Shown: positions 4,674 to 36,312, numbered from the stretch's first letter. The stretch: DNA of 37,547 nt from a virus (IMGVR_UViG_2724679539_000004); one strand, 5' to 3'. Numbers and translations are program-made. The notes: generated by a model not told the origin, from the letters alone.

Positions 4674-4745
4674 TTCCTGTTCCGGGCCTTTCCTGCACCT
4701 TGCGGCGGGAGGCCTTCGCACATCTGTAGTAAAGAGAATTGCAGC

Positions 4746-8048: not shown

Positions 8049-9008
8049 ATGAAAATTTGTATCGACGACGGCTCCACCAACATCAAGCTGGCATGGACTG
8101 AGAACGGCGAACGCCGCAACGCCATCAGCCCGAACAGCTTCAAGTCGGAATGGTCTGCGCCGTTCGGTGGCACGCAGCCCGCGAACTACATGCTTGATGG
8201 CGTGCGCTATGGTTTTGATCCGGTCAGCGATCGCTTTGTCCAGACGACCGACACGCAATACCAATACAGCGATGTGAATGTCATTGCCATTCATCACGCG
8301 CTGGTCAAATCAGGCATCACGCCACAGGAGGTGGATGTGGTTGTCACCCTGCCACTGAGCGAGTATTTCGACACAAACGCACAGCCGGACATGGCCAACA
8401 TCAACCGCAAAAAAGCGAACGTTATGCGCCCGGTGGAGTACCAGAACGGCGAAGCATTCACTATCCGTAACGTGCGGGTTATGCCTGAATCCATTCCGGC
8501 TGGCTTTAAGGCACTGGCTGACATGAGTCCGTTTGAATCCCTGCTGATTGTGGATTTGGGCGGAACCACGCTGGATGTGGCAAAGGTTCAGGGGCAACTG
8601 GCAGGTATCAGCCAGGTGTTTTGCGATCCACACGTAGGCGTTTCTCTGATGGCCGATGCCGTACTGTCGGTGATGGCCACTAACGGTATGCGCACCAGTC
8701 ACCACATCGCCAATACCATTATCGAACATCGCCATGATGAAGCCTGGCTGCGCCAGCACATCCACAATGACGCGCATTACGCCAGCCTGATGGCGGTTAT
8801 TCGTGAAAAGGAAGAAACACTGAAACAACGCGTGATCCGCGCGCTGGCGGTTTTTTCGGGTTACGGGCGGGTGATGGTTGTCGGTGGCGGGGCGGAGATT
8901 GTGGCACCCGCTATCCGCGAAGCCTGCGGAGTTAATGCGACTTTCATCGCGGACGGGGTGCCACAGTTTGCTCTGGTTAATGGGCTGTACGCAATGGACA
9001 AGGAGTAA
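8049..9008 (+). CDS. parM: ParM/StbA-like actin-type segregation ATPase
   Basis: 319 aa; N-terminus MKICIDDGSTNIKLAW...ISPNSFKSEW and YQYSDVNVIAIHHAL closely parallel plasmid R1 ParM as recalled; LIVDLGGTTLDV and VMVVGGGAEIVAP actin-fold motifs. Confidence 0.8.
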   Translation: MKICIDDGSTNIKLAWTENGERRNAISPNSFKSEWSAPFGGTQPANYMLDGVRYGFDPVSDRFVQTTDTQYQYSDVNVIAIHHALVKSGITPQEVDVVVTLPLSEYFDTNAQPDMANINRKKANVMRPVEYQNGEAFTIRNVRVMPESIPAGFKALADMSPFESLLIVDLGGTTLDVAKVQGQLAGISQVFCDPHVGVSLMADAVLSVMATNGMRTSHHIANTIIEHRHDEAWLRQHIHNDAHYASLMAVIREKEETLKQRVIRALAVFSGYGRVMVVGGGAEIVAPAIREACGVNATFIADGVPQFALVNGLYAMDKE

Positions 9009-9012
9009 ACCA

Positions 9013-9324
9013 ATGACGACACCAACCAGACGGATAAGTTTCTATCTGAAGCCTGTGGCCGTCAAGAACGAAAGCGAAGCATGCGCCTGGCTGGACAGCC
9101 TTACACCAGAAGCCCGCAAAAGCGGCCAACGCGTGGCTTTTCTGGCCGGGCTGGCACTTCTGAAAATGAATCCAGCAGAGGCTTACCGACTGGCTGCATG
9201 GGCTGACGATGAGGCGTTATCAGTGACACAAACCAGGACAGAATGCCCCGCGTCACAGCCAGTATCAACCGCACAGATAACCAGTCAGATGGCCGGAAAT
9301 ATCCGGGCGTTATTTCCCGAATAA
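9013..9324 (+). CDS. parR: ParR/StbB-like centromere-binding adaptor
   Basis: 103 aa; RRISFYLKPVAV...AFLAGLALLKMNP...IRALFPE parallels R1 ParR as recalled; directly downstream of parM. Confidence 0.6.
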   Translation: MTTPTRRISFYLKPVAVKNESEACAWLDSLTPEARKSGQRVAFLAGLALLKMNPAEAYRLAAWADDEALSVTQTRTECPASQPVSTAQITSQMAGNIRALFPE

Positions 9325-9387
9325 CACAACATCAGGGCGCATCCGCCCTGATCTCCACCTCAGAACATAAACAAGGAGACCGACTTA

Positions 9388-9933
9388 ATGAGCGAAATCA
9401 ACTATCAGGCACTGCGTGAGTTAGCAAAACAGGCAACACAGGGCGAATGGGTCGCATTTATTTCGCCGGGCAAATACGGCACGTACGCCGTGCACACACC
9501 AGGAGATAATCATCACGGAGATATTGTCGACTGGCCTGGATTCGACGGACAGAAAAACGCAGAGAACAACGCTCGTTATATCGCAGCTTTCAACCCTGAA
9601 GTAGTGCAGGCGCTGTTGGATGAACGAGAAGCCCAAAGCAAACGCATTGCAGAGCTGGAGGCTAATTTCACGGTGCTGGCAGTGGAGAATGCCTCAATGA
9701 AGCTGTTTATCAGGGGCTGTTGCTATGTATTTGATGGAGAGCAGGATGAAATATCTGACGCGTATATCTGCGCAACAGACGGAGGAATGCCACAAACCCC
9801 AGCCACCGACGCTTTCCTGGCTGAAGTGCGGGCGCAGGGCGTGGAGATGTTTGCGGAGTGTGCATACACACTTGAACATCATGATCACGCAGTAGCTTTT
9901 GCCGCCGAGCTACGTAAAGGAGGCAGTCAGTGA
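9388..9933 (+). CDS. Ea22/Ead-like protein
   Basis: 181 aa; MSEINYQALRELAKQATQGEW N-terminus typical of Ead/Ea22 family; coiled-coil ALLDEREAQSKRIAELE. Confidence 0.6.
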   Translation: MSEINYQALRELAKQATQGEWVAFISPGKYGTYAVHTPGDNHHGDIVDWPGFDGQKNAENNARYIAAFNPEVVQALLDEREAQSKRIAELEANFTVLAVENASMKLFIRGCCYVFDGEQDEISDAYICATDGGMPQTPATDAFLAEVRAQGVEMFAECAYTLEHHDHAVAFAAELRKGGSQ

Positions 9934-10469
9934 GCAAAATTGACTATCAGGCACTACAAATGGCAGCAGAACGTGCAATTCCGGCAATGGAACGCCTGTT
10001 AATATTGCCAGTTGATGATGATTTGTTAAGCGAACAGGAACTTAAAGATTACGGTGTGGATATTGACGCGATCAACACCTTCAGACTTCTGGCTGGACCG
10101 GAAGACATGCTGGCACTGCTGGATGAACTGGAAATAGCAAAAAAGCGCATCGCTGAACTGGAAAAAATCGCCACTGACTATGCACTTAAATTCCAGAAAG
10201 CACAGGACGCATTAAAGTATGCCGCTTTGCCGCATAGCCGGACGGCGCAACAAACAAATAATCTTGCAGTATCGCTTCCGGACATAAGCGAATATTTCAT
10301 TAATGACGTATTTCAGCCCTTGCGATACGAGCGGGATGTTGAAAGAGCCATCATAAAGGCTGGCGGAAAAGCATTGTGGCAGGAGAAACACGAGGACAGA
10401 ACGCATCAGTCATGCGATGTAAATTGTGGATGGTTTAGCCCACTGACGACAGATAAAAATAACACCTGA
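9930..10469 (+). CDS. Ea22/Ead-like paralog
   Basis: 179 aa; MSKIDYQALQMAAERA and ALLDELEIAKKRIAELE; ATGA-type overlap with upstream paralog. Confidence 0.55.
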   Translation: MSKIDYQALQMAAERAIPAMERLLILPVDDDLLSEQELKDYGVDIDAINTFRLLAGPEDMLALLDELEIAKKRIAELEKIATDYALKFQKAQDALKYAALPHSRTAQQTNNLAVSLPDISEYFINDVFQPLRYERDVERAIIKAGGKALWQEKHEDRTHQSCDVNCGWFSPLTTDKNNT

Positions 10470-21644: not shown

Positions 21645-22245
21645 TTCACTGTTACCGCCATCAGCCAGCAGTTTCATGCGTTGTGCCGAAGCCGTCGGAA
21701 CACGCATTACAGACATTCCGGTAGACCTCAATACGCTGTGGTCGCCGGATACCTGCCCGGTGCATCTGCTGCCTTATCTCGCCTGGGCGTTTTCCGTTGA
21801 CCGCTGGGATCGCAACTGGCCGGAAGAGACAAAGCGACAGGTAATTCGTGATGCATGGCTGATACACCGACACAAAGGGACCATCAGCGCACTGCGAAGA
21901 GCCGTGGAGCCTCTCGGCTACCTGATTGAAGTAAAGGAGTGGTGGCAACTCAACGAGGAGCCAGGAACATTTCGCATTGTTGTCGGAGTACTTGATCAGG
22001 GCATCACCGATGAAATGTATCAGGAACTTGAGCGCCTTATTGCGGATGCAAAACCAGTAAGTCGCCATCTGACGGGGCTGGCGATCAGCCTGAGTGTGAA
22101 CGGAAAGATTTTCGTTGGTACGGGATGCTATCACGGCGATGCCCTGACGGTTTATCCCTACACCCCGGAGTCCATTATTGTCGAAGGGGATTATTTCCCT
22201 GCCCCGGCCATTCATTTAATTGATAATCTGAGAGTAAACGCATGA
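21637..22245 (+). CDS. I: Baseplate protein I
   Basis: 202 aa from ATG 21637 overlapping J stop. Confidence 0.75.
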   Translation: MSNSLLPPSASSFMRCAEAVGTRITDIPVDLNTLWSPDTCPVHLLPYLAWAFSVDRWDRNWPEETKRQVIRDAWLIHRHKGTISALRRAVEPLGYLIEVKEWWQLNEEPGTFRIVVGVLDQGITDEMYQELERLIADAKPVSRHLTGLAISLSVNGKIFVGTGCYHGDALTVYPYTPESIIVEGDYFPAPAIHLIDNLRVNA

Positions 22246-23912
22246 CAGTGAAATACTACGCCATTCTGACTAATCAGGGCGCGGCACGACTGGCTAACGC
22301 GACGATGCTCGGCAGTAAGCTGAATCTGACGCAAATGGCCGTTGGTGATGCAAATGGTGTGTTACCAACACCAGACCCTGCACAAACAAAACTGATTAAC
22401 CAGAAACGCATTGCACCGCTGAATCTTCTGAGTGTTGACCCTAACAATCAGAGCCAGATTATTGCGGAACAAATCATCCCTGAAAACGAGGGAGGATTCT
22501 GGATCCGTGAGATTGGTCTTTATGATGATGAAGGCGTACTTATTGCGGTGGCAAACTGCCCGGAAACGTACAAACCGCAGTTGCAGGAAGGCAGTGGACG
22601 CACCCAGACTATCCGCATGATTCTGGTTGTCACGAACACCGAAGCCATCACGCTGAAAATCGACCCGTCTGTGGTTCTGGCAACCCGCAAATATGTGGAT
22701 GATAAAATCTCAGAGCACGAACAGTCACGACGTCACCCGGACGCCTCGCTGACCGTAAAAGGTTTTACTCAGTTAAGCAGTGCAATTAACAGTGAATCAG
22801 AAACACTGGCCGCAACACCGAAAGCGGTTAAGGCTGCATATGACCTGGCTAACGGGAAATATACCGCCCAGAACGCCACCACTACACAAAAAGGGATTGT
22901 TCAGCTCAGTAGCGCCACGAACAGCACGTCTGAAACGCTGGCAGCGACACCAAAAGCTGTTAAGGCGGTAATGAATGAAACGAAAAAGAAAGCACCATTA
23001 AACAGCCCGGCACTGACCGGAACGCCAACAACACCAACGGCGGCACAGGGGACTAATAGTACCCAGATCGCAAGCACGGCTTTCGTTATGGCCGCGATTG
23101 CCGCACTTGTAGATTCGTCACCTGATGCACTGAACACGCTGAACGAACTGGCTGCGGCGCTGGGCAATGACCCGAATTTTGCGACCACCATGACTAACGC
23201 GCTTGCGGGTAAGCAACCGAAGGATGCCACCCTGACGGCGCTGGCGGAGCTTGCCACATCAGCAGATAAACTCCCATATTTTACAGGGGCAGATCGTGCC
23301 GCGTTAACCGCGTTGACAAGTGTTGGACGTGCCATTCTTGGCAAAACCAGCACTCAGGGAGTTCTTGATTACCTTGGTTTGGGGGAAGGCTCTGCGTTGC
23401 CCGTTGGTGTACCCGTTCCGTGGCCCTCAGCTACACCGCCAACGGGCTGGCTGAAATGTAACGGCGCAGCATTTTCTTCTGAAGATTACCCCAAACTGGC
23501 ACAGGCTTACCCCGCGAATAAATTACCGGATCTACGGGGTGAATTTATCCGTGGCTGGGATGATGGACGTGGCTTGGATGCTGGGCGTGCCTTGCTAAGT
23601 CTTCAGGATGACTCCTTTGAAGCGCACAGGCATGAGTCCTTTTTTTATGCGGGTATTTCACGTAATGAAACACCATTAAAAAATCTTCCAAGTTCAGACG
23701 AGATGCTGACTTTAAGTTCCACAACTAATGCCTTGTCCCCGGACAGTATTGATGCCACCAACTCGTTAATTGGTAATGACGATTACAACTGTCTTATCGA
23801 AGGGAATAAAAATAACAAACGAACAGCGACAGGACTGAGTACCAGTATTGTCGGCACAGCAGAAACACGCCCCCGCAACGTTGCATTCAATTACATCGTA
23901 AGAGCCGCATGA
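22242..23912 (+). CDS. H: Tail fibre protein H (constant N-terminal part fused to cassette 1)
   Basis: 556 aa; N-terminus MTVKYYAILTNQGAARLANA typical of P2 H/Mu S fibres; C-terminal 179 aa is the first of six cassettes. Confidence 0.85.
   Translation: MTVKYYAILTNQGAARLANATMLGSKLNLTQMAVGDANGVLPTPDPAQTKLINQKRIAPLNLLSVDPNNQSQIIAEQIIPENEGGFWIREIGLYDDEGVLIAVANCPETYKPQLQEGSGRTQTIRMILVVTNTEAITLKIDPSVVLATRKYVDDKISEHEQSRRHPDASLTVKGFTQLSSAINSESETLAATPKAVKAAYDLANGKYTAQNATTTQKGIVQLSSATNSTSETLAATPKAVKAVMNETKKKAPLNSPALTGTPTTPTAAQGTNSTQIASTAFVMAAIAALVDSSPDALNTLNELAAALGNDPNFATTMTNALAGKQPKDATLTALAELATSADKLPYFTGADRAALTALTSVGRAILGKTSTQGVLDYLGLGEGSALPVGVPVPWPSATPPTGWLKCNGAAFSSEDYPKLAQAYPANKLPDLRGEFIRGWDDGRGLDAGRALLSLQDDSFEAHRHESFFYAGISRNETPLKNLPSSDEMLTLSSTTNALSPDSIDATNSLIGNDDYNCLIEGNKNNKRTATGLSTSIVGTAETRPRNVAFNYIVRAA
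23362..23387 (+). repeat. hix/gix-like 26-bp crossover site A (inside H)
   Basis: TTCTTGATTACC-TT-GGTTTGGGGGAA; left half nearly identical to hixL as recalled. Confidence 0.6.
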
Positions 23913-23931
23913 AAACGTTGGTTTGGGGGAA
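23906..23931 (+). repeat. hix/gix-like crossover site B
   Basis: CGCATGAAAACG-TT-GGTTTGGGGGAA. Confidence 0.6.
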
Positions 23932-24429
23932 GGCTCTGCGCTGCCCGTTGGTGTGCCCGTTCCATGGCCCTCAGCCACGCCGCCAACGGGGTGGCTGAAA
24001 TGTAACGGTGCAGCATTTTCTTCTGAAATGTACCCCAATCTGGCAAAAGCCTACCCCACCAATAAATTACCGGATTTACGCGGTGAATTTATCCGTGGCT
24101 GGGATGATGGGCGTGGTGTGGATGCGGGGAGAGCAATATTATCCGCTCAGGGCGATGCCATACGTAATATCTATGGTGAGTTCAGGACTGTAAACACCGA
24201 AAATTATTCAATATGGGAATCAGTAGGCTCGTTTAAGGGGGCCGTGGTGCCTTTGAACCCCTCAACGAACAATAGTTATTTCTCCTTAGTCAGAAGTATG
24301 GTGACAGAAAGGTCCGAGGGAGGTGTTTACCCAAAAGTGATAGGCCTTGATGCTTCAAGAATTGTTCCAACTGCAAACGAAAACCGTCCTCGTAACATTG
24401 CGTTTAATTACATCGTAAGGGCAGTATGA
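23920..24429 (+). CDS. Promoterless tail-fibre C-terminal cassette 2 (tail-collar-like domain)
   Basis: No ATG; conserved N-end GEGSALPVGVPVPWPSATPPTGWLKCNGAAFSS, RGEFIRGWDDGRG collar motif, conserved C-end RPRNIAFNYIVRA, divergent middle. Confidence 0.7.
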   Translation, partial: GLGEGSALPVGVPVPWPSATPPTGWLKCNGAAFSSEMYPNLAKAYPTNKLPDLRGEFIRGWDDGRGVDAGRAILSAQGDAIRNIYGEFRTVNTENYSIWESVGSFKGAVVPLNPSTNNSYFSLVRSMVTERSEGGVYPKVIGLDASRIVPTANENRPRNIAFNYIVRAV

Positions 24430-24448
24430 AAACGTTGGTTTGGGGGAA
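24423..24448 (+). repeat. hix/gix-like crossover site C
   Basis: AGTATGAAAACG-TT-GGTTTGGGGGAA. Confidence 0.6.
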
Positions 24449-24898
24449 GGCTCTGCACTGCCCGTTGGCGTGCCCGTTCCGTGGCCTTCAGCAACACCGC
24501 CAACGGGGTGGCTGAAATGTAACGGCGCAGCATTTTCTTCTGAAATGTACCCCAATCTGGCAAAGGCTTACCCAACGTTAAAATTACCTGATTTACGCGG
24601 TGAGTTTATCCGTGGTTGGGATGATGGGCGCGGGGTGGATGCGGGAAGGGGCATCTTAAGCATACAGGGGTGGTTAACAGGAAGTCATTATCATAATATT
24701 CGGTCATGGGACGCGTGGGATAACACGGTACTGGTGCCAAATGACAAAGGAGGGGATAGTCTGTTGTCGACAGATAACGCCGTCCGGCAAGGTGCAATTA
24801 ACGGTAGATTTACCAGTCAATACAGAACGGAATCCTCAGTGGGGAATGAAACCCGCCCACGCAATATTGCCTTCAATTATATTGTGAGAACCGCATAA
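24437..24898 (+). CDS. Promoterless tail-fibre C-terminal cassette 3
   Basis: Same conserved ends, distinct central segment. Confidence 0.7.
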   Translation, partial: GLGEGSALPVGVPVPWPSATPPTGWLKCNGAAFSSEMYPNLAKAYPTLKLPDLRGEFIRGWDDGRGVDAGRGILSIQGWLTGSHYHNIRSWDAWDNTVLVPNDKGGDSLLSTDNAVRQGAINGRFTSQYRTESSVGNETRPRNIAFNYIVRTA

Positions 24899-25509
24899 TG
24901 AATAACGCGATATTAAATGATGACCTTATTGCCGTACAGGCAGGAAACATCGTCGTTTATAACTATGATGGTGAGACACGGGAATATATTTCCGAATCAA
25001 CTGAATATCTTGCTGCGGGTGTCGGTATTCCGGCAAATTCCTGTTTAGATGCCCCGGGCGCACATAAAGCGGGCTATGCTATCCGCCGTTCGGAGAATTT
25101 AAATTCATGGGAGTATACGCCAGATCATCGTGGTGAAACCGTCTATAGCACTGACACGGGAAACACCGAAGAAATCACGACGCTGGGTGACTACCCGAAA
25201 AATACAACCACTATCGCCCCGTTAACACCATACGATAAATGGGATGGTGAAAAATGGGTGACAGATACTGAGGCACAACATGGTGCCGCAGTAGAAGCGG
25301 CAGAAACCAAGCGCCAGTCACTGGCTGATGCGGCAATGGCTTCCATAAGTCTGATTCAGTTGAAGTTGCAGGCCGGGCGGAAGTTGACGCAGGCAGAAAC
25401 CACCCGGCTTAACGCCGTGCTGGATTATATAGACGCACTGAACGCAATGGATATAAACATGGCACCAGATATCAACTGGCCGGAAATACCACTGGCAGCA
25501 GCCAGTTGA
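24898..25509 (+). CDS. Tail fibre assembly chaperone (P2 gpG / Mu U family)
   Basis: 203 aa; C-terminal DINWPEIP resembles Tfa-family C-termini; lies between forward and inverted cassettes. Confidence 0.75.
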   Translation: MNNAILNDDLIAVQAGNIVVYNYDGETREYISESTEYLAAGVGIPANSCLDAPGAHKAGYAIRRSENLNSWEYTPDHRGETVYSTDTGNTEEITTLGDYPKNTTTIAPLTPYDKWDGEKWVTDTEAQHGAAVEAAETKRQSLADAAMASISLIQLKLQAGRKLTQAETTRLNAVLDYIDALNAMDINMAPDINWPEIPLAAAS

Positions 25510-25515
25510 ATATAA

Positions 25516-25995
25516 CTAAGCCGCCCTCACGATATAGTTAAATGCAATATTGCGGGGGCGGGTTTCACTACCACCTGTGTTACCAATACTTCCTCGTGAA
25601 TGAAGCGTTGGTGATGGAATCAAACTCCCTCCTGTATTTGTGGCATCAAGCCCCCTGCCTTGTGTATATGTTTTTTTGAAAATCGTGGCCAACTCCCATT
25701 CATCCTTTGTGTCATATCCATCGTTAGCTACAACAATATGGCGGTGTTTTTCCAACATCCCGGTTTGAATGCTCAATAAAGCGCGTGCTGCATCAATTCC
25801 TCGCCCATCATCCCAGCCGCGAATAAATTCGCCCCGTAAATCCGGTAATTTATTGGCGGGGTAGGCTTTTGCCAGTTTGGGGTACATTTCAGAAGAAAAT
25901 GCTGCACCGTTACATTTCAGCCAGCCCGTTGGTGGTGTTGCTAAGGGCCACGGAACGGGCACACCAACGGGCAGTGCAGAGACTTCTCCTAAACC
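25516..25995 (-). CDS. Promoterless tail-fibre C-terminal cassette 4 (inverted)
   Basis: Same conserved ends on minus strand. Confidence 0.7.
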   Translation of the reverse strand, partial: GLGEVSALPVGVPVPWPLATPPTGWLKCNGAAFSSEMYPKLAKAYPANKLPDLRGEFIRGWDDGRGIDAARALLSIQTGMLEKHRHIVVANDGYDTKDEWELATIFKKTYTQGRGLDATNTGGSLIPSPTLHSRGSIGNTGGSETRPRNIAFNYIVRAA

Positions 25996-26009
25996 AACGT
26001 TTTCATGCG
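25984..26009 (-). repeat. hix/gix-like crossover site D (inverted)
   Basis: minus strand reads CGCATGAAAACG-TT-GGTTTAGGAGAA. Confidence 0.6.
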
Positions 26010-26509
26010 GCTCTTACGATGTAATTGAATGCAACGTTGCGAGGGCGAGTTTCTGTACCTACATTTCCACTAATTTCACCAAACCGTTTTACATTACGAG
26101 AGCTAATGGCTCGTAGTGAGGAAGGCACCTTTAAACCGGGTTCGTCTGTTTTAACTATTCCCCCGTCCCCGTATGTAGCCAGTATTCCAGGGTTTACTCC
26201 TTCCCGTGCACTTCCCGCGGCAAGTCCGCCCCCGGTCCATAATTCCATATAGTGTGCATGATCCAAAATTGTGTGTGGCTGCCAATTAAGCAAAGCGCGA
26301 CCAGCATCCACCCCGCGCCCATCATCCCAGCCGCGAATAAATTCTCCCCGTAAATCCGGTAATTTATTGGCGGGGTAGGCTTTTGCCAGTTTGGGGTACA
26401 TTTCAGAAGAAAATGCTGCGCCGTTACATTTCAACCACCCCGCTGGCAGCGTGGCTGAGGGCCATGGAACGGCCACACCAACAGGCAGCGCAGAGCCTTC
26501 CCCCAAACC
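26003..26509 (-). CDS. Promoterless tail-fibre C-terminal cassette 5 (inverted)
   Basis: Same conserved ends on minus strand. Confidence 0.7.
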   Translation of the reverse strand, partial: GLGEGSALPVGVAVPWPSATLPAGWLKCNGAAFSSEMYPKLAKAYPANKLPDLRGEFIRGWDDGRGVDAGRALLNWQPHTILDHAHYMELWTGGGLAAGSAREGVNPGILATYGDGGIVKTDEPGLKVPSSLRAISSRNVKRFGEISGNVGTETRPRNVAFNYIVRAA

Positions 26510-26523
26510 AACGTTTTCATGCT
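26498..26523 (-). repeat. hix/gix-like crossover site E (inverted)
   Basis: minus strand reads AGCATGAAAACG-TT-GGTTTGGGGGAA. Confidence 0.6.
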
Positions 26524-26948
26524 GCCCTTACGATGTAATTAAACGCAATATTACGAGGACGAATGGTTACATAATTAACCCCATCACCTCGTGAAGGCCC
26601 TGCAAATGAAAAACGGGAAAAGCCTGGTTGGTTAGAAACAATTTGGTCATAGTTATTGATTGAATGACCAGACCCAATGTCGAAATTACCTCCGTAATGA
26701 GAAAAACTTGTACCATCCTGCCCTGAAAGCAGGGTACGTCCCGCATCAATCCCGCGCCCATCATCCCAGCCACGGATAAATTCACCGCGTAAATCCGGTA
26801 ATTTATTGGTGGGATAAGCCCTTGCCAGTCTGGGATACATTTCAGAAGAAAATGCTGCACCGTTACATTTCAGCCAGCCCGTTGGTGGTGTTGCTGAGGA
26901 CCACGGAACGGGCACACCAACGGGCAGTGCAGAGCCTTCCCCCAAACC
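26517..26948 (-). CDS. Promoterless tail-fibre C-terminal cassette 6 (inverted)
   Basis: Same conserved ends on minus strand. Confidence 0.7.
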   Translation of the reverse strand, partial: GLGEGSALPVGVPVPWSSATPPTGWLKCNGAAFSSEMYPRLARAYPTNKLPDLRGEFIRGWDDGRGIDAGRTLLSGQDGTSFSHYGGNFDIGSGHSINNYDQIVSNQPGFSRFSFAGPSRGDGVNYVTIRPRNIAFNYIVRAA

Positions 26949-26962
26949 AACGTTTTCGTTTT
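26937..26962 (-). repeat. hix/gix-like crossover site F (inverted, next to invertase promoter)
   Basis: minus strand reads AAAACGAAAACG-TT-GGTTTGGGGGAA. Confidence 0.55.
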
Positions 26963-27015
26963 ATCCCTACCTATACCAACTATGTATTTTTCACGAAACA
27001 AAGAGGATGTTTTTT

Positions 27016-27615
27016 ATGCAAATTGGCTATATTCGTGTGTCAACAAATGACCAGAACACGGATTTACAACGCAATGCACTGAACTGCGCAGGATGTGAAC
27101 TGATTTTTGAAGATAAAATCAGCGGAACGAAATCAGCCAGACCGGGATTGAAAAAACTGCTCAGAACGCTATCAGAAGGAGATACGCTGGTTGTCTGGAA
27201 GCTGGACAGACTGGGCAGAAGTATGAAACACCTGATCACGCTTATTGAGGAATTGCGGGAAAAAGGTGTTAATTTCCGTAGTCTGACGGACAGCATTGAC
27301 ACATCAACACCCATGGGGCGTTTCTTTTTTCACGTCATGGGGGCTTTAGCCGAAATGGAACGTGAATTAATTGTAGAGCGTACACTGGCCGGGCTGGCAG
27401 CAGCACGCGCACAAGGACGCATTGGCGGACGTCGCCCGAAGTTGACAAAAGAACAACATGAGCAAATAGCGAGACTGATTAAAAACGGTCATGACAGGAA
27501 ACAACTGGCGATCATTTACGACATCGGCATATCGACGATTTATCGTTATCACCCTGTAGGCGATATACAGGCTGAAGAAACAACCAGGCAGACTCAGGAA
27601 AATGAAAACCGCTAA
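27016..27615 (+). CDS. Serine DNA invertase (Gin/Hin/Cin/Pin family)
   Basis: 199 aa from ATG 27016; MQIGYIRVSTNDQNTDLQRNAL with catalytic Ser, GDTLVVWKLDRLGRS, C-terminal HTH; near-identical in pattern to Gin as recalled. Confidence 0.9.
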   Translation: MQIGYIRVSTNDQNTDLQRNALNCAGCELIFEDKISGTKSARPGLKKLLRTLSEGDTLVVWKLDRLGRSMKHLITLIEELREKGVNFRSLTDSIDTSTPMGRFFFHVMGALAEMERELIVERTLAGLAAARAQGRIGGRRPKLTKEQHEQIARLIKNGHDRKQLAIIYDIGISTIYRYHPVGDIQAEETTRQTQENENR

Positions 27616-27634
27616 TCTGACCATTAGCGGTTTT
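27605..27634. terminator. Bidirectional hairpin between convergent invertase and U genes
   Basis: AAAACCGCTAAT-ctgacc-ATTAGCGGTTTT perfect 12-bp stem. Confidence 0.5.
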
Positions 27635-27641
27635 GCGTTAA

Positions 27642-28136
27642 TCAAAACAGCCCTTTAACGGAGCTGGCCGCGCTGTTAAGGGATGATGTGACCTTATCTT
27701 TGAAGCCGGACAGCATATCACTGAACGATGAGGATTGCAGGCGCTCCCGCAAATCCTCATCACAGCGTTCAAGAGTCAGTGAAAATTCTATCTTTTTCGC
27801 CTTACCGTAGCGATCAAACTCGGAACGGGTCGTATTCGTTTCAGTCAGTACATACATGCCGTAAATCTGCCCGACACCATCAATCAGAGGCCAGGGGCGT
27901 CCTGTATATGCCTGCGTGGTCAGCAACGAAAGCGACACTTCGCCACCTGTAATTTCAGGATAAAGCACGCCGGAAAGCACGATGCGCTCATCACCTGCAC
28001 CGATATACTGCCAGCTTGCTGAACGGTTAACACGTTCATTTTTCACATGCCGCCAGCTTTTGTTTTGCTGTAACTGCTGATGCGGCAGTGTGCGCAGCTC
28101 AAAAACAAACATGCCGTAGATCATCATCATGGCCAT
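27642..28136 (-). CDS. U: Tail protein U-like
   Basis: 164 aa (P2 U about 159 aa); follows tape measure. Confidence 0.75.
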   Translation of the reverse strand: MAMMMIYGMFVFELRTLPHQQLQQNKSWRHVKNERVNRSASWQYIGAGDERIVLSGVLYPEITGGEVSLSLLTTQAYTGRPWPLIDGVGQIYGMYVLTETNTTRSEFDRYGKAKKIEFSLTLERCDEDLRERLQSSSFSDMLSGFKDKVTSSLNSAASSVKGLF

Positions 28137-28142
28137 GACTCC

Positions 28143-30986
28143 TCAATCTTTATCGTAAAAACTGCCACGTCCGGCACGGTCGCGTCGTTCCAATTCTGCC
28201 CTGACCATTTCACCGACCAGTTTCGCCAGTTCGCGGGGATTCTGCGTAACAACGTTATGCAGATGAACATGAATTTCACCGCCAAATCCGGAGGCAACAG
28301 GCTCCCGGTTACGGAAAGTTACAGGAACTGATGCCACTGGAGATCGTATGGCCTCCGCCACCGGGCGGGAGCTGGCCGCAACAACAGGGACCAGCGCCGG
28401 AGGCAGCGGAGCCGGGACCACGGGTGTGATATTAATTGCGGGGGCAGGCTTACTGACCTGCGCAATCTTCCGCTCCTGCCACTCCCCACGAACAGCAAGT
28501 GCGCGGGGCAGGTTCTTAAAGACAATATCGCCGGGGCCAATGCGTTTTTTCGTCTCATCAACCAGCTTACCTGTGTTATCAGCAATTTTGCTGAGTCTGC
28601 GTAGCGTCCCGGTATTGCTGTCTGTGAGCGGTTTGTTGTCTTTGGGTTTATCACCTCCGGTGCCATTGCCATTTTCCACAGGCTTCGGCGGATTGATTTT
28701 CGCCAGGTCACCCTGAAGCAAGGCAACCTTGTCCTGAAGAATGGCCGCACGCTGTGCGTCTTCGATTTTCTTGCGCGCCCTTTCCGCTTCATCCGGAAGG
28801 ACGCCAAGTTTTTCAAGTATCCACGCCAGCGTATCCAGTAGCATTTTTGCAGGTGTCAGAACAAGCTGTAACGCACCGCCAAGAACGTTACCGAATATCT
28901 CGCCAGCACTGGTACATTTATCCAGCGTTTCCTTGCTGGACTCCATCGGTGACAGCAGCGATTTAAACCAGTTAAACACCTGGCTGATCCCGCTTCCGAT
29001 TGCGTCAAAAACAGGACCAAACCGTTCAAAGGTTTCGCGCAACGGGGTCAGCCTTTCCATAATCCCGCTGAACACCCCGGCAAAAAATGCCCTGATGGGA
29101 TCCCAGTATTTCCAGATAAGAACGGCAGCTCCGGCAAGCGCAGCCACGATAAGACCAACCGGACTGAACAGCGCCCCGATAGCGCCTCCCAGTAAAGAAA
29201 CGGAACCCGTCACCATTCCCCATAGCGCAGGCAACACCCTGACGACATTCATTGACCGGGTAAGAATGTCAAAACCAAGACGCAGGGTGGCCAGCTTCCC
29301 GTAAAGCACCCCAATAACCAGCGACAACGAGCCAATCGTTGCAGTCATTGCCAGCAACGCACCGCCTGCTATCAGTAGCTGGCGCGTCAGTACCGGATGG
29401 GCCTGCGCCAGCGAGGTGATTTTTTCAAGCACCCGCGTGAGCCACTGCGTGACAGAACGCAGCGGACCGTCAACCAGATCACTGATGCGAATACGAAGAC
29501 CTTCCCATGCGCTGTCGAGATTTTTCAGGTCCCCATCAAGATTATCGGCCATTACTTTTGCAACGCGATCGGCCTCTCCCCTTGCCCCCTGCAATTCTCT
29601 GGTCAGTTTTTGCAGCTCTCCTGAACCAGCCGCCGCAACAAGCGTCTGCAAACCAACGAACGCCTCTTCTCCGGCGATGTCCTTGAAGAAGGAGACCTGG
29701 TCCACCTGTCCGTATTTTTGTGTCGCCTTATAGAGATCAAGCAGCACATCCTCCATCGGGCGCATTTTGCCTCTGGCGTCAGCAACTGACACCCCCAGCT
29801 CTTTCAGTGCATCAGCCGCAGCTTTTGGCGGTGATGCAAGGCGGGACAGACTTGCGCGCATGGCCGTACCAGCATCGCTTCCGCGAAGACCATTATTGGC
29901 AAGCATCCCTGCCATGGCCGCCGCTTCTTCAAGACTGATACCAAGTTTTGCGGCAACCGGACCGGTATACTTCATGGTTTCGCCCAGCGCGCGTAAATCA
30001 GTATTGGTCCGGGTGAATGCTGCTGTCAGCGTATCGCCAACCCGGTCCATTTGATCGGCTGTCAGGTTGAACTGTGTGAGGATATTGGAGCCTATATCAG
30101 CCGTCTCGCCGAGTTCGACGCCACCTGCCAGCGCCATATTAAGAACACCGGGCAATGCGGCCTGAATGGCCTGCGGAGTAAAACCAGCCATTGCCAGAAA
30201 GCTCTGCCCACTGGCGGCATCACTCGCAGTAAACTGTGTTTCAGAGCCAAGTTTTAACGCCTGCTCACGCAGCGCCTTAAACTGCGGGCTGTTTTTGTCG
30301 ATTCGCGTCAGTGCCTGAACGCGGGACATCTCTTTGCCGAACCCGATCGCAGGCTGCAAAAAACGCCCGGCAGCATAGCCGCCCGCCGCTGCCGCACCAA
30401 TTGCCAGCGCACCACCTGTTTTCAGTTTTCCCGCTGTTTCCTGCGCGCGCGAATACCGCTCACGCGCCCGCGTTACACGCGCAAGCGCCTGCCGTTCGCG
30501 TTCAAGCTGGTTGTTGTACTGTTCGGTGCGTCTGATGGCCTGCTGGATGGTGTTATCGCTACCTGTCAGGGAAATGCCGTGGCGTTTTAGCTCTCCGCCA
30601 AGTTCCCGCATTTTCTGAATTTCCCGTGTGCGCGATTCATTCAGGCGTTCAAGCCGGGTGCTTAACTGCTGCATCAGCTTTTGTTGTTTTTCGCTGAGCA
30701 CTGTACCCGTGCGTTGTAACTGATTAAGGGCGTTAAGCTGGCGTCGTGCTTTCACGATGCCCGCATCCGCTTTACTGACAGCGTCACGGGCGCGCTCAAA
30801 TGAACGCGCCTGACGCTCGAGATTTTTGATCGCCCCCTGCGTTCGCTGGATGGAGTCACCAAACTGCCCCATCAGGCGGCGGGCGTTTTCGGCAGGCCGG
30901 GTCAGCCTGTCAACGGCGCTGAAAGCGACCCGGATATCAAGAGTCTTCATTGTCTGCATTCCCGCTGCGAAGTGCCGCCCGCTCAC
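28143..30986 (-). CDS. T: Tail tape measure protein T
   Basis: 947 aa; coiled-coil and Gly/Ala-rich TM-like segments typical of tape measure. Confidence 0.85.
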   Translation of the reverse strand: MSGRHFAAGMQTMKTLDIRVAFSAVDRLTRPAENARRLMGQFGDSIQRTQGAIKNLERQARSFERARDAVSKADAGIVKARRQLNALNQLQRTGTVLSEKQQKLMQQLSTRLERLNESRTREIQKMRELGGELKRHGISLTGSDNTIQQAIRRTEQYNNQLERERQALARVTRARERYSRAQETAGKLKTGGALAIGAAAAGGYAAGRFLQPAIGFGKEMSRVQALTRIDKNSPQFKALREQALKLGSETQFTASDAASGQSFLAMAGFTPQAIQAALPGVLNMALAGGVELGETADIGSNILTQFNLTADQMDRVGDTLTAAFTRTNTDLRALGETMKYTGPVAAKLGISLEEAAAMAGMLANNGLRGSDAGTAMRASLSRLASPPKAAADALKELGVSVADARGKMRPMEDVLLDLYKATQKYGQVDQVSFFKDIAGEEAFVGLQTLVAAAGSGELQKLTRELQGARGEADRVAKVMADNLDGDLKNLDSAWEGLRIRISDLVDGPLRSVTQWLTRVLEKITSLAQAHPVLTRQLLIAGGALLAMTATIGSLSLVIGVLYGKLATLRLGFDILTRSMNVVRVLPALWGMVTGSVSLLGGAIGALFSPVGLIVAALAGAAVLIWKYWDPIRAFFAGVFSGIMERLTPLRETFERFGPVFDAIGSGISQVFNWFKSLLSPMESSKETLDKCTSAGEIFGNVLGGALQLVLTPAKMLLDTLAWILEKLGVLPDEAERARKKIEDAQRAAILQDKVALLQGDLAKINPPKPVENGNGTGGDKPKDNKPLTDSNTGTLRRLSKIADNTGKLVDETKKRIGPGDIVFKNLPRALAVRGEWQERKIAQVSKPAPAINITPVVPAPLPPALVPVVAASSRPVAEAIRSPVASVPVTFRNREPVASGFGGEIHVHLHNVVTQNPRELAKLVGEMVRAELERRDRAGRGSFYDKD

Positions 30987-31475
30987 GCCAGCTAACCACT
31001 TCGCCGGGCGTCATCATGAAGATTTCGGCGGGCGACCAGTTAAAAATGGCGGCGATATCTGCCACCAGATCTTCGATGTGCTCAAAGCACACCAGGGTGA
31101 TTACGCTGCCGTCTCCTGCACGCTCTTCGCGCCAGAGTCTGGCTCGCTCATAAAATTTACAGCCACAGCGCACAACTGAATAAAATCGCGTGAAGACATT
31201 TTTTTAATCATCACTTCATCCAGTCGTGGCGAGGTCACGCGAGGCAACAGCGTGAACATGGTATCCGCTTTCAGATTCAGCACATCAGACAGCGACAGAC
31301 CACGCAGGGATCCAGCCTGTTCAATAGCCCCGGTGATCTCCACATACGTGATTTTTTCGCCACCACGCTCAATTGGTCGGGTCAGTTTTACGCCACGTTC
31401 GACAGCCATATCCTCACCTGCCGTCACATCATCCGCCGCGGTGTTATTCCGGGTTTCAGTATCGATGTCTTTCAT
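30937..31475 (-). CDS. E+E' programmed -1 frameshift product (GT-like)
   Basis: Slippery heptamer A_AAT_TTT (plus-strand 31152-31158) in E frame; -1 frame stays open to 30937, overlapping T start. Confidence 0.55.
31101..31475 (-). CDS. E: Tail assembly chaperone E (G-like)
   Basis: 124 aa; aaggag SD; precedes T; slippery site near 3' end. Confidence 0.7.
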   Translation of the reverse strand: MKDIDTETRNNTAADDVTAGEDMAVERGVKLTRPIERGGEKITYVEITGAIEQAGSLRGLSLSDVLNLKADTMFTLLPRVTSPRLDEVMIKKMSSRDFIQLCAVAVNFMSEPDSGAKSVQETAA

Positions 31476-31530
31476 CAGTTTTCTCCTTTTCAGTCAGAGG
31501 CGACGCACTGCGCCGCCTGCATATTACTTA

Positions 31531-32043
31531 TCAGCCAAGCCCGAGCGCGGAACGGATACGGTCAGGCACAATGTCCTTGCCGTCCTTCCGGTAAATGAAG
31601 TTCAGCAGGTCAATCTCCCACAACGGGCGATCGTTAACACTCAGCTTGTAGTAGGTGTTTTTAATGGCGTAAGTGTGTGATGTGGCTTCGCCCTGTTTGG
31701 CTTCCCCCATATCAATTTCCGTCACACGTCCGCGCATTTCGACTTCATACAGGTCGCTTTCTGCATCGGTGTAGTATTCACCCGCAAAACGCAGCAGCGT
31801 GCCGTCAATCGTGCCGCCATACTTAAGGAACAGCTCACGAACTGCGCCCCCCATGACAAAGCTCGCATCAAGCGCGGAGTCGTCCAGACCGAGATCAATA
31901 CTTACCGCACCCATCATGCCACCACCCCGGTAGCTGTCGGTTTTGCGCGTCAGCTTAGGTAGAGTGACGGACGTCACCTTACCCACTTCGTTTTCACCAT
32001 CCACAAACAGCGTAAAAAAGCGAAGATGTTTTGGTACAGCCAT
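31531..32043 (-). CDS. FII: Tail tube protein FII
   Basis: 170 aa; TLPKLTRK and EVEMRGR motifs resemble P2 FII as recalled. Confidence 0.85.
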   Translation of the reverse strand: MAVPKHLRFFTLFVDGENEVGKVTSVTLPKLTRKTDSYRGGGMMGAVSIDLGLDDSALDASFVMGGAVRELFLKYGGTIDGTLLRFAGEYYTDAESDLYEVEMRGRVTEIDMGEAKQGEATSHTYAIKNTYYKLSVNDRPLWEIDLLNFIYRKDGKDIVPDRIRSALGLG

Positions 32044-33227
32044 CAGGCACCTCCCAGCACCGCAAATGCGGGACCAAAGAATTCATCAGTAAACGACTGG
32101 TAAAGCTCCATGTCTTCCAGCGGGGGAACGGGCGTATATTTGTAGCGAATACGCACACGCCCCTGACGTAAATCCGTGGTGCTGTTATCCACCACGTCAT
32201 ACCAGCACTCCGCGCCAATCAGTTTCCCGGCAGTAACCAGTGAATCCAGTTTTGCCCTGATGGCACTGATAACATCCTTCACGTTCGCAGGCGTCAGTGG
32301 ACTGTCGATGGTTTCAAACTGCGCTTCCGCAATTGAATCAGCCAGCACCTGTGCGGTTCGGGTATACACCTCAAAGATGTAGGCGTTCGTTTCCGGTGTG
32401 CGGTTGCCCCAGAAGCGGAACCCGTTGCGACGAATAATGGTCGTGATTTCTTTGTTGTTGAGACTGTTGGCATCGCTGTCTTCGGCCTGCAACGACCAGA
32501 ACACATGCCTCGACATCCCCAGCACATTTTTAACCGGAACGTTGGACAGTGATTTGTGCCATCCCTGCTCATGGTCAATGTACGCACGAAGGCCGCACGC
32601 ATAGGCAGGCGCGGGGAACGTTTCGTTTTTGCCACTTTTCGGGTTGTAGGCGATGAAGTCCGGCCATAAGAGCATCACCTCACGTTCGTTGAATTTCTGG
32701 CGGTAGGTAATCGCCTCAGCCATCGTGTTACAGCCGTGACATGAGGCATACACAAACGCGCGCAGTTTACCCGCAATCACGCACAGGGATTTTGTTACAG
32801 CCTCCGTGTCCAGCTCCGGCGCGGCCAGAATACGCGGACGGTATCCGATGCTTTCATCCTGCTCTGCAACAAGCAGCGCATACATCCCCGTATAGCTGCC
32901 GTCAGATTCAGAACCACCGATAACCAGTTGATCCTGCGTTTTTCCGTCTTCTTCTTTGTGTTCAGCCACGCGAACGACGATCACCTTTGTGCTCACCTGG
33001 TCTGCGATGGCCTTAAGCGCACGATAAAGCGTCCCCGTTGTTCCGCATTTTCCCAGCACGTCATTGACGCGGGTCAGCAGTGTGGGCTTGTTCAGCGGGA
33101 ACAGCTCCGCATCCGCATCATCCGCCGTTGCCACGATACCGATAACACTGGAATCAACATCATTAATCGCTGTTACCAGGTCGGTACTTTCCGTAACACG
33201 GGCACCATGAAAACGAGTTTCACTCAT
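32043..33227 (-). CDS. FI: Contractile tail sheath protein FI
   Basis: 394 aa; FPLNKP, QEQGWHK, IRRNGFRFWGNRT, YTPVPPLE match P2 FI as recalled. Confidence 0.9.
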   Translation of the reverse strand: MSETRFHGARVTESTDLVTAINDVDSSVIGIVATADDADAELFPLNKPTLLTRVNDVLGKCGTTGTLYRALKAIADQVSTKVIVVRVAEHKEEDGKTQDQLVIGGSESDGSYTGMYALLVAEQDESIGYRPRILAAPELDTEAVTKSLCVIAGKLRAFVYASCHGCNTMAEAITYRQKFNEREVMLLWPDFIAYNPKSGKNETFPAPAYACGLRAYIDHEQGWHKSLSNVPVKNVLGMSRHVFWSLQAEDSDANSLNNKEITTIIRRNGFRFWGNRTPETNAYIFEVYTRTAQVLADSIAEAQFETIDSPLTPANVKDVISAIRAKLDSLVTAGKLIGAECWYDVVDNSTTDLRQGRVRIRYKYTPVPPLEDMELYQSFTDEFFGPAFAVLGGA

Positions 33228-33384
33228 AGCTTCAGCCCCTTGTATCCGTTAAATGATTCGGCAACAATCATCACCCACCACGCGCGTAATCTCACCCCTG
33301 CGCCATTCTCCCGCCACGGCGACAACAAAAAGCAGTAACCCCCTCCGCACGCACATGCGACCATGCCGCACAGGGAGGGAACAG

Positions 33385-34494
33385 ATGACCGACACCACCA
33401 TGCAATTGCTCAGTCAGGGCACAGACCCCGTGAAAATGCCGGATTTTGATATTCTCGCGGAGGGTAAAACGCTGTCAGGCGTGGCAGAGCGCCTGATGAG
33501 TCTGTCACTGACCGACAACCGGGGATTTGAAGCGGACCAGCTCACCATCACGCTGGATGATGCGGATGGTCAGTTGCAGCTACCGCCACGGGGCGCGCGC
33601 CTGACGGTTCTCATTGGCTGGAAAGGAGAACCGCTGACAGAAAAAGGCACTTACATTGTTGATGAAATCGCTCACGAAGGACCGCCGGACAGGCTGACTG
33701 TTTCAGCCAGAAGCGCAGATTTTCGGGATGAATTTAACGTTAAACGTGAGGTGTCCTGGCATGATGTGACCGTTGAGCGTGTGGTATCCGCCATCGCTCA
33801 TCGGTACGGTCTGAAACCGCAAATCAGCGAAATGCTGATGGATATCGAAATCGACCACGCCGACCAGACCGAAGAAAGCGACATGTCCTTTCTTACGCGC
33901 ATGGCGGAAATGCTGGGCGCAATCACCACGGTAAAAAGCGGTAATCTGTTATTCATCATGCCCGGCGGTGGCGTGAACGCACAGGGCCAGCCGTTGCCAT
34001 CGTTCGCCATCACACGCAGCAGCGGCGATCGCCATCAGTTCCGCATTGCGGACCGCGAAGCGTATACGGGGGTACGCGCCTACTGGCTTGATCTTAATTA
34101 CGGGAAAAAGAAAAAAGTCAGCGTGAAACGCCGCAAACCGCCAAAACCCAAAAAGGAGAAAAGCAGCAGCCGTGAAGGTGATTATATGGAAGGCGCGGAA
34201 GGCAATGTGTTTGTGTTACGCAAGACCTATCAGAACGAACAGGCAGCAAGACGCGCAGCGGCGGCAAAGTGGCAGCAACTACAACGCGGAGCCGCATCAT
34301 TCTCCATCACGCTGGCGCGTGGACGTGCAGAACTCTACCCCGAAATGCATGGTACGGTAACAGGATTTAAAAGCGAGATTGATAATCAGGACTGGATCAT
34401 TGCAAAAGCCGAGCACACCATTGATAACAGTGGCTTTACCACGCAGCTTGAGCTTGAGGCAAAAATCCCGGAATGGATAGCGGAAACAGAGTGA
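33385..34494 (+). CDS. D: Tail protein D (late control gene D family)
   Basis: 369 aa from ATG 33385 (SD gggaggga); position upstream of ogr. Confidence 0.8.
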   Translation: MTDTTMQLLSQGTDPVKMPDFDILAEGKTLSGVAERLMSLSLTDNRGFEADQLTITLDDADGQLQLPPRGARLTVLIGWKGEPLTEKGTYIVDEIAHEGPPDRLTVSARSADFRDEFNVKREVSWHDVTVERVVSAIAHRYGLKPQISEMLMDIEIDHADQTEESDMSFLTRMAEMLGAITTVKSGNLLFIMPGGGVNAQGQPLPSFAITRSSGDRHQFRIADREAYTGVRAYWLDLNYGKKKKVSVKRRKPPKPKKEKSSSREGDYMEGAEGNVFVLRKTYQNEQAARRAAAAKWQQLQRGAASFSITLARGRAELYPEMHGTVTGFKSEIDNQDWIIAKAEHTIDNSGFTTQLELEAKIPEWIAETE

Positions 34495-35378: not shown

Positions 35379-35576
35379 ATGACGCAAAATGTACGATGCA
35401 AAAATTGCAACAAACTACTTGCCCGCGCCTCATTTCACTACATTGAAATAAAATGTCCGCGCTGCAAAACACTTAACCAGATAACGAGAGCCATCGAGCA
35501 CCCCACACACATGAGGAGTTATGACCGTGGGGATCGCAATCCAGCACCAACCAGCACATACACCGGAACACACTAA
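35379..35576 (+). CDS. com: Com-like zinc-finger translational activator
   Basis: 65 aa; VRCKNCNKLL...HYIEIKCPRCKTLN matches phage Mu Com zinc finger as recalled; overlaps start of downstream methyltransferase. Confidence 0.7.
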   Translation: MTQNVRCKNCNKLLARASFHYIEIKCPRCKTLNQITRAIEHPTHMRSYDRGDRNPAPTSTYTGTH

Positions 35577-36312
35577 GGTTTATCAGACTGACAATGCCAC
35601 GCTCTGTCGTGGGAATGCGCTGGAAATATTGCCGCTGATTGAGCCAGAAAGCATTGATGCCTTAATCACTGACCCACCTTACAGTTCGGGTGCGACACAC
35701 AAGGCCGGACGCACCAACCAGGGCAGCCATGCAAAATATCTGAACGGCGAGAACCTTCACCGCTTTGATGGGTTCGCGGGTGAAAACATGGACGCCCGTT
35801 CGTGGGCTTACTGGACACAATTATGGATGGCACAGGCACACCGCGCAGTCAGGCCGGGCGGTTATGCCCTGGTATTTACTGACTGGCGACAACTACCAGC
35901 TTTAACCGATGCGTTTCAGGCCAGTGGCTTTACATGGCGCGGCATCATTGCGTGGAACAAAGGGAGGGGGTCACGAACACCACATACCGGGTATTTCCGG
36001 CATCAGTGCGAATACATCGTCTGGGGCAGCAAAGGCCATTTAGATAAATCGCCTTCGGGACCGTTCGACGGCTGCATGACGTTCCCGGTTATCCCGTCAA
36101 AGAAAATGCACCCAACCGGAAAACCAGAAGAACTAATGGCGGAACTGGTCAGGACTGTGAATAGTGGCGGAACAGTCCTTGATCCTTTTATGGGGTCAGG
36201 GACAACGGGTGTGGCTGCACTGAAAGCAGGACGCAAATTTATTGGTATAGAAACCAGTGATCATTATTTTGATGTAGCAACACAACGGCTCAAAACGGCG
36301 ATCGAACCATAA
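35521..36312 (+). CDS. DNA methyltransferase, beta-class (DPPY before FxGSGTT)
   Basis: 263 aa; motif IV DPPYSS upstream of motif I FMGSGTTGVAA; CcrM/HinfI-like order, N6-adenine or N4-cytosine. Confidence 0.8.
   Translation: MTVGIAIQHQPAHTPEHTKVYQTDNATLCRGNALEILPLIEPESIDALITDPPYSSGATHKAGRTNQGSHAKYLNGENLHRFDGFAGENMDARSWAYWTQLWMAQAHRAVRPGGYALVFTDWRQLPALTDAFQASGFTWRGIIAWNKGRGSRTPHTGYFRHQCEYIVWGSKGHLDKSPSGPFDGCMTFPVIPSKKMHPTGKPEELMAELVRTVNSGGTVLDPFMGSGTTGVAALKAGRKFIGIETSDHYFDVATQRLKTAIEP

Follow-up and report, generated by a model that had tools for sequence, protein, structure and literature searches.

The window analysed here, the whole 37,547-nt stretch IMGVR_UViG_2724679539_000004, comes from contig JZWQ02000001.1 of Escherichia fergusonii GCA_000968905.2 and contains a P2-like prophage in which the tail-fibre gene H is followed by an array of alternative 3′ ends and a DNA invertase gene. 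We conclude that this locus is very probably a Min-type multiple-inversion host-range switch, recently and probably still active. The conclusion is carried by the anatomy of the locus, by the continuity of its reading frame, by the identity of its invertase and by natural isomers whose breakpoints are confined to the crossover sites. Systems of this type have been known since 1990 and are common in Escherichia, and the locus is a new member of the group. Conceptually it adds little beyond the Min system of p15B (1990-92) and the shufflon of a P2-like prophage of enteropathogenic E. coli (EPEC) described in 2014. It is, all the same, a clean and fully intact six-tip programmed host-range switch in a P2-like prophage, with activity documented by natural isomers elsewhere.

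Six tail-fibre cassettes in frame with one shaft

The constant part of H (Hc, amino acids 1-378, positions 22242-23375, plus strand) comprises a P2-type N-terminal domain and shaft repeats, with Pfam matches to Phage_tail_fib (1.6e-62) and Phage_fiber_2 (8.4e-40). It sits downstream of P2 I- and J-like genes, and its neighbours include GPW_gp25, Baseplate_J and Tail_P2_I. Judging from the N-terminal domain and from the position downstream of V-W-J-I, H is a P2-like (Peduoviridae-type) tail fibre. A first-pass annotation, made from the DNA alone, had described a C-terminal module of H at 23376-23912 with five further copies, two forward and three inverted, and this is the arrangement that we find. 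The module, here called C1 (178 aa, plus strand), is the present end of H, fused to Hc, and thus the expressed tip. C2 (169 aa, 23920-24429) and C3 (153 aa, 24437-24898) follow on the plus strand, C3 being always directly followed by the tfa gene, and C4 (159 aa, 25516-25995), C5 (168 aa, 26003-26509) and C6 (143 aa, 26517-26948) lie on the minus strand. These five are silent; all six are open and intact, at 143-178 aa.

Alignment of the six cassettes and of the six crossover sites showed conserved cassette ends, divergent cores and sites of 12+2+12 bp. An N-end of about 77 aa (GLGEGSALPVGVPVPW...GRGxDAxR) and the C-end RPRN(I/V)AFNYIVR(A/T)(A/V) are common to all cassettes, as had been claimed, with a few substitutions in the N-end of C2-C6. 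The cores between them measure about 52-87 aa, and the earlier estimate of 60-100 aa has to be revised accordingly. By repeat finding, the repeat arms are 218-291 nt long and 76-92% identical. The Pfam family Collar (PF07484) was matched by 6/6 cassettes.

The crossover dinucleotide had been said to keep the reading frame of H, and it does. Codon 378 of H is CTT, with the TT core of the site as its positions 2-3, and each cassette begins at GGT, so that every possible fusion to Hc is in frame. Open reading frame (ORF) finders and PGAP begin the silent cassettes at TTG triplets (23923, 24440, 26506 and 26945) that lie inside the crossover site. The resulting separate calls of a "phage tail protein" for silent cassettes are a systematic annotation artefact of the module.

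A profile of the six cassettes matched the tip of T4 gp37 (2xgf) end to end with an expectation value (E) of 1.3e-19, the match covering the collar motif PIGxPxPWPS...P.G...G..F....YP.LA.AYP...PD.RG and the C-terminal NIAFNYIVR. The same profile matched the short tail fibre 9cuy (E 1.3e-23). Moreover, HxH motifs are present in C1, C3, C4 and C5. In the gp37 tip the chain runs to the distal head and back, and both chain ends lie at the collar. A similar out-and-back chain would explain why the cassettes have conserved ends and a variable middle. By this analogy, the middle would be the receptor-binding end, bracketed by collar-forming N- and C-ends, and receptor specificities would reside in the tips. 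The likeness has its limits, in that the needle and head part of gp37 is much longer than in the cassettes and the T4 tip is single and fixed. An AlphaFold2 monomer of C1, built from the six-cassette alignment, reached a predicted local distance difference test score of only 36 and was unusable; fibre tips of this kind are intertwined trimers.

Six crossover sites

The motif core AAACGTTGGTTTGGGGGAA, with up to 3 mismatches allowed, has exactly six matches in the whole window, three forward and three inverted (23369+, 23913+, 24430+, 25984−, 26498− and 26937−), where 0.01 would be expected by chance from dinucleotide-preserving shuffles. From the alignment of the six regions and the site scan, the layout is 12+2+12 bp, 26 bp in total. 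The left outer site s1 (23362-23387, plus strand), which is fixed and lies within H, reads TTCTTGATTACC TT GGTTTGGGGGAA. The right outer site s6 (26937-26962, minus strand), also fixed and located beside the invertase gene, reads AAAACGAAAACG TT GGTTTGGGGGAA. Between them are the internal sites s2 (23906-23931, plus strand), whose left half includes the TGA stop codon of C1, s3 (24423-24448, plus strand), s4 (25984-26009, minus strand) and s5 (26498-26523, minus strand). These four share the form (C/A)G(C/T)ATGAAAACG TT GGTTT(G/A)GG(G/A)GAA, the left half of which can also be written xGxATGAAAACG; s4 carries a variant right half, GGTTTAGGAGAA, that is common among relatives.

In general the sites read xxxxxxAAAACG/ATTACC TT GGTTTGGGGGAA, that is, imperfect inverted half-sites around a 2-bp core over 26 bp. 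They match the 12-2-12 pattern of gix (CCAAAACC TC GGTTTACAGGAA) and cix (CTAAACC TT GGTTTAAGAGAA). Both the six 26-bp sites, three in each orientation, and their hix/gix/cix half-site pattern had been recognised in the first-pass annotation and are upheld here. The site sequence that it gave, with ATGAAAACG, applies to s2-s5, and the left halves of s1 and s6 differ from it, as expected for the two fixed outer sites. The left half of s1 is the same in every P2-like relative and also in the S gene carried by the IncY plasmid, and the left half of s6 stays with the spacer and the invertase gene in every isomer while the cassette attached to it differs. In the alignment, homology between the copies ends exactly at the core in both s1 and s6.

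The invertase and its surroundings

The gene adjoining the array (27016-27615, plus strand) encodes a serine DNA invertase of 199 aa, with the catalytic Ser9 in MQIGYIRVSTNDQ and the motif YIRVSTNDQ. Pfam matches are Resolvase (1.5e-51) and HTH_7 (1.4e-12), and the protein aligns over its full length with the Mu Gin structures (PDB 4m6f/3uj3) at E 3.5e-91. An adjacent Gin/Hin-like invertase had been predicted, and this identification holds. Its start is placed at 27016, the earlier 27007 being an upstream in-frame ATG. On the evidence of its predicted catalytic domain, Ser9 and C-terminal helix-turn-helix, the protein is a member of the Din family (Hin/Gin/Cin/Pin/Min). Identity is 72-73% to Gin and 74% to Cin. 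The counterpart on a six-site P1-like IncY plasmid is 93% identical, and those of E. coli P2-like prophages are 99-100% identical, with 99% for EPEC E2348/69 and 100% for E. coli D72. Among the more than 6,600 relatives that a homologue search with this protein returned, not one bears the name Min. In every relative examined, an intact Gin-family invertase adjoins the array.

A fixed spacer (26963-27015) separates s6 from the invertase gene and is 100% identical in E. coli 23AR0998 and ETEC6335. It presumably holds the invertase promoter and ribosome-binding region. A consensus promoter scan gave no promoter for the invertase and none that could drive tfa when inverted, a result that is uninformative because P2 late promoters do not follow the sigma-70 consensus. 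A putative Fis-dependent recombinational enhancer (sis) lies at 27034-27105 (plus strand), near the start of the invertase coding region. This stretch can be aligned, gap-free, with the cin enhancer annotated in P1 (nt 31678-31749) and is 79% identical to P1, versus 60% over the next 60 nt; since it is also coding, its conservation is confounded. Finally, a hairpin with a perfect 12-bp stem (AAAACCGCTAAT...ATTAGCGGTTTT, 27605-27634) overlaps the invertase stop codon and precedes that of gpU, between these two convergent genes. As a likely bidirectional terminator, it should let little transcription pass through from the convergent tail operon.

Predicted isomers and proposed mechanism

A breadth-first search, with inversion allowed between any two oppositely oriented sites, reached 240 configurations from six sites, five segments and six cassettes. 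The number of isomers follows 2(n-1)! for n sites, hence 4 for three sites, in agreement with the published EPEC case, and 240 for six. All six tips reach the expression position, C4, C5 and C6 in one inversion and C2 and C3 in two, and the orientation of the outer sites is constant throughout. The proposal that any of six tips could be displayed on one fibre shaft is therefore borne out in simulation.

In the mechanism that we propose, the invertase would pair two opposite-facing sites and cut at the central TT. On the model of Gin, Cin and Hin, inversion probably depends on Fis, which would bind an enhancer within the 5′ part of the invertase gene. The segment between the paired sites would be inverted, with the outer half-sites TTCTTGATTACC (in H) and AAAACGAAAACG (by the invertase gene) remaining fixed. 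Each cassette would move as one unit, made up of the right half-site before it, the coding sequence with its stop codon and the left half-site that follows. By repeated inversion up to 240 isomers would arise, each with one of six tips joined to the Hc shaft. With repeated inversions, a lysogen population should release virions with different tips, which would amount to a bet-hedging host-range switch. As any one assembly represents one of up to 240 states, prediction of host range from a single tail-fibre gene is unreliable. The cassette set is also a library of compact receptor-binding tips with one docking interface and might be of use in the engineering of P2- or R-pyocin-type fibres.

Natural isomers in related genomes

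Two assemblies of the E2348/69 lineage differ in this locus and form one pair of natural isomers. Inverting isomer a in silico between s1 and s3 yields isomer b with 0 mismatches in 8141 nt. The crossover of this pair can be placed only to a 37-nt window. The expressed tip is C3 in isomer a and C6, at 98%, in isomer b. Goldberg et al. 2014 (Genome Med, PMC4272514) described in a P2-like prophage of E2348/69 a shufflon with three inverted repeats and three alternative C-termini, and validated four co-existing variants by polymerase chain reaction (PMC4272514). By its description (three sites, four variants), that locus fits the three-site locus of the assemblies compared here.

The array of E. 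coli ETEC6335 comprises six sites, with the same set of six cassettes as here. DNA identity to the window is 100% for C1, C3, tfa, C5, C6, the spacer and the invertase gene, 99.8% for C4 and 96% for C2. With sites written as slashes, its order is Hc/C4+ tfa− C3−/C5−/C1−/C6−/C2−/invertase, and C4 is expressed. This order is one of the 240 predicted isomers and at least 5 inversions away from that of the window. Similarly, in E. coli 23AR0998, C1, C2, C5, C6, the spacer, the invertase gene and gpU are 100% identical, C4, tfa and C3 are 94-99% identical, and the cassettes are permuted within an eight-site array. C1 is silent in both genomes, though 100% identical, and C5 is 100% identical in 23AR0998, ETEC6335 and GPEC1031. 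Cassette-specific single-nucleotide polymorphisms (SNPs) start 6-33 nt from the core. The identity of whole cassettes despite changed neighbours, together with SNPs so close to the core, implies that each crossover was confined to a site. Moreover, segments that are 100% identical in different E. coli isomers imply very recent activity of the same module.

DNA searches with chimeric junction queries located further fusions predicted for the window. The Hc-C2 junction was found as one contiguous 810-nt match of 99.9% in E. coli GPEC1031 and the Hc-C4 junction in one piece, at 99.6%, in ETEC6335. In D72 it is C3 that is expressed, and P1-like plasmids carry the C5 type joined to the S shaft, at about 89-92%. 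Thus, all six tip types occur fused to a shaft in some genome, C1 doing so here.

Several further observations concern these relatives. In Escherichia sp. MOD1-EC7003, assembled from short reads, the locus is split into contigs of 1.0-1.7 kb that end at the sites (NZ_PTRE01000134/254/255), which is consistent with a mixed population of isomers in the sequenced culture; short-read assemblies do break at these sites. In the arrays of 23AR0998 (8367-8934) and 2014C-3075 (8489) some cassettes are frameshifted or truncated, through either true decay or indel errors of long reads, and the expressed tip of 23AR0998 is degenerate, at 100 aa. The shaft of ETEC6335 is longer (gene 4403-5800), giving an H of 625 aa. 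About 210 nt of it, corresponding to nt 516-725 of Hc in the window, align twice, which would be consistent with an internal duplication. The longer shaft means that fibre length varies as well as the tip.

A single tfa gene for six tips

The tail-fibre assembly (chaperone) gene tfa (24898-25509, plus strand; Pfam Caudo_TAP, 5.1e-33) was missing from the first-pass annotation and lies within the central invertible segment s3-s4. Its start overlaps the stop codon of C3 (ATAATG), and C4 ends 6 bp past it on the opposite strand. We found no second tfa or Caudo_TAP homologue in the window. Every relative examined has the gene tied to a C3-type cassette, and, as there is no site between tfa and C3, C3-tfa-C4 is a single invertible unit in all of them. 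Of the 240 simulated isomers, 120 have tfa antisense to H, and so does the natural isomer of ETEC6335, in which C4 is expressed. Two explanations offer themselves: that most tips can do without Tfa for their folding, or that tfa is expressed whatever its orientation. This puzzle is the sole part of the system with some potential novelty. If gp37-like tips do need Tfa in general, one could imagine a hidden, orientation-independent route to tfa expression, or a mix of chaperone-dependent and chaperone-independent tips on the same shaft. Besides this, the module with its sites, cassettes and invertase would seem to be swapped as a unit between two unrelated phage families, P2-like prophages and P1-like phage-plasmids; we regard this combination as possible though rather doubtful.

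Comparison with known inversion systems

The Min system of p15B, described by Sandmeier et al. (PNAS 1990), Iida et al. (Mol Microbiol 1990) and Sandmeier, Iida and Arber (J Bacteriol 1992), reportedly has six mix sites, a constant 5′ fibre part, six alternative 3′ cassettes, a Din-family invertase beside the array and 240 isomers. Its sequence is GenBank X62121. The locus in the window is likewise of the Min type, with more than two sites, overlapping invertible segments and promoterless 3′ cassettes for one 5′ part. The two differ in their setting, p15B Min being on a P1-like plasmid prophage with an S-type shaft and the present array on a P2-like chromosomal prophage with an H-type shaft. 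The six-site P1-like plasmid pMTY1586_IncY has an identical s1 half-site, a single tfa and an invertase of 93% identity. Its C5-type cassette is 96% identical in the variable region and is the best plasmid match among the six cassettes. The papers on p15B Min are cited in PMC5903667 and PMC6906374.

The three-site locus of E2348/69 belongs to the same prophage lineage and has the same flanking genes, identical outer half-sites and an invertase of 99% identity. It shares the C3-tfa-C4 central unit, as well as C6 at 98-99%, but has three sites, three tips and 4 isomers where the window has six, six and 240. The G segment of Mu and the C segment of P1 also have a serine invertase (72-74% identical), 26-bp 12-2-12 sites and a constant Sc with a variable Sv part, and in P1 the enhancer lies within the invertase gene. 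They differ from the window in having two sites and two states, a separate chaperone for each variable part (U, U′) and an Sv of about 320-530 aa. We rejected a two-state segment of the Mu G or P1 C kind, since the window has six sites and a single tfa. The first-pass annotation was apt in likening the locus to p15B Min rather than to these segments.

Tail-fibre genes are an enriched class of programmed-inversion targets (PMC9881135). In the temperate Enterobacter phage FRphi (Nat Microbiol 2026, PMC13418256), a Gin-type recombinase generates three C-terminal isoforms of the tail fibre, and locked variants showed isoform-specific infection, with FhuA as receptor (PMC13418256). This supports the host-range logic. 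FRphi has lambda-like cI and cII, is apparently of another lineage and is likened to the window by description. The shufflon of R64/IncI resembles the array in kind, in that overlapping inversions swap the C-terminal ends of one adhesin-like protein (pilV). It uses the tyrosine recombinase Rci, 19-bp sfx sites and a conjugative pilus adhesin as target, whereas the enzyme in the window is a serine resolvase/invertase. A shufflon of the R64 type was rejected on this ground, the only tyrosine recombinase in the window being the prophage integrase (1-1020). Because the recombinase class differs from that of Rci, the word "shufflon" applies here in a loose sense only.

Alternative explanations

Several points weigh against a Min-type switch that still operates in this prophage. 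The strain is known from one arrangement, and inversion is documented by natural isomers in other genomes, so that activity here is surmised from these relatives. When a collection of 15 billion proteins was searched for exact matches to the chimeric H proteins predicted for the five other tips (Hc + C2 to C6), none of them turned up; this search was without power, as the Hc allele occurs on a single contig, from E. fergusonii. The right half of s4 carries two substitutions. The Fis enhancer is a candidate proposed from an alignment in the coding region only. With one tfa for six tips, antisense in half of the isomers, functional fibres may not be formed from all tips. Finally, the resemblance to p15B Min (six sites, six tips, one invertase and 240 isomers, as in the window) is one of described layout.

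Some of these points would fit a fossil, that is, a Min-type system frozen here because the prophage is defective, the invertase unexpressed or the sites inactive. The single arrangement known for the strain, as well as the promoter scan that detected no invertase promoter by consensus, would agree with this. However, the invertase has an intact ORF and is shared at 100% identity by many E. coli prophages, the six cassettes and six sites are all intact, the prophage has a full P2-type gene set, and the segments that are 100% identical in different E. coli isomers imply very recent activity. We consider a fossil improbable. Rearrangement might also proceed by general RecA recombination across the conserved cassette 5′ ends of about 230 bp, the invertase and the 26-bp motif being incidental. 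The inverted arms (218-288 nt, 83-92% complementary) are sufficient for RecA, and the 37-nt interval to which the E2348/69 crossover is resolved leaves room for it. Such exchange is nevertheless hard to reconcile with cassettes that are 100% identical over their full length despite changed neighbours, which places the exchange within the 6-33 nt that hold the site. Chimeric 5′ regions were not seen, homology stops precisely at the core of both outer sites, and in every case the array has next to it a Gin-family invertase that is intact and highly conserved. This makes a RecA origin very improbable.

That the five copies form a static array of independent small tail-collar genes, each with its own TTG start, is extremely improbable. 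Each frame can indeed open at a TTG, and RefSeq annotates the equivalents as separate coding sequences, but the TTG lies inside the crossover site and lacks an upstream Shine-Dalgarno sequence, and the ATG located 13 nt before it belongs to a different frame. Moreover, every cassette is frame-continuous with Hc, the cassettes have no shaft or baseplate-attachment part of their own, and the same cassette can be silent in one genome and the 3′ end of a full H in another. A Min-type multiple-inversion switch remains the explanation that we favour.

Distribution of the module and prophage context

The conserved cassette 5′ end was detected in 365 of 5,426 complete E. coli genomes (about 7%), at 578 chromosomal and 592 plasmid places, with a maximum of 14 per genome. 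Among P2-like prophages, the number of sites is two in D72, three in E2348/69, five in JNE082640 and HCM-28C-2, six in 2014C-3075, ETEC6335 and GPEC1031, and eight in 23AR0998; P1-like IncY plasmids have six. The s1 half-site TTCTTGATTACC is identical in both types of element, and the module is therefore common to P2-like and P1-like elements. A scan of contigs for the exact internal site, with one genome per species, had Escherichia sp. MOD1-EC7003 as its sole match and has little bearing on distribution.

The window as a whole is a P2-like prophage with genes for integrase, GPA, capsid, lysis, V-W-J-I-H, sheath, tube, T, U and D. In canonical P2 the order is H-G-fun(Z)-FI, without an invertase. 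The statement that P2 itself has none was thus correct, fun(Z) being the gene that follows G. The tail block FI-FII-E-T-U (27642-33227) is encoded on the minus strand and runs towards H and the invertase gene, and D (33253-34494) is on the plus strand, whereas in P2 FI-FII-E-T-U and D are all co-directional with H-G. The same layout is present in the E. coli relatives, so the inversion of this 5.6-kb block is typical of the lineage. Finally, accessory genes at 8049-10469 and 35521-36312 encode a ParM-like actin segregation protein, two Ead/Ea22-like ORFs and an N6/N4 DNA methylase.

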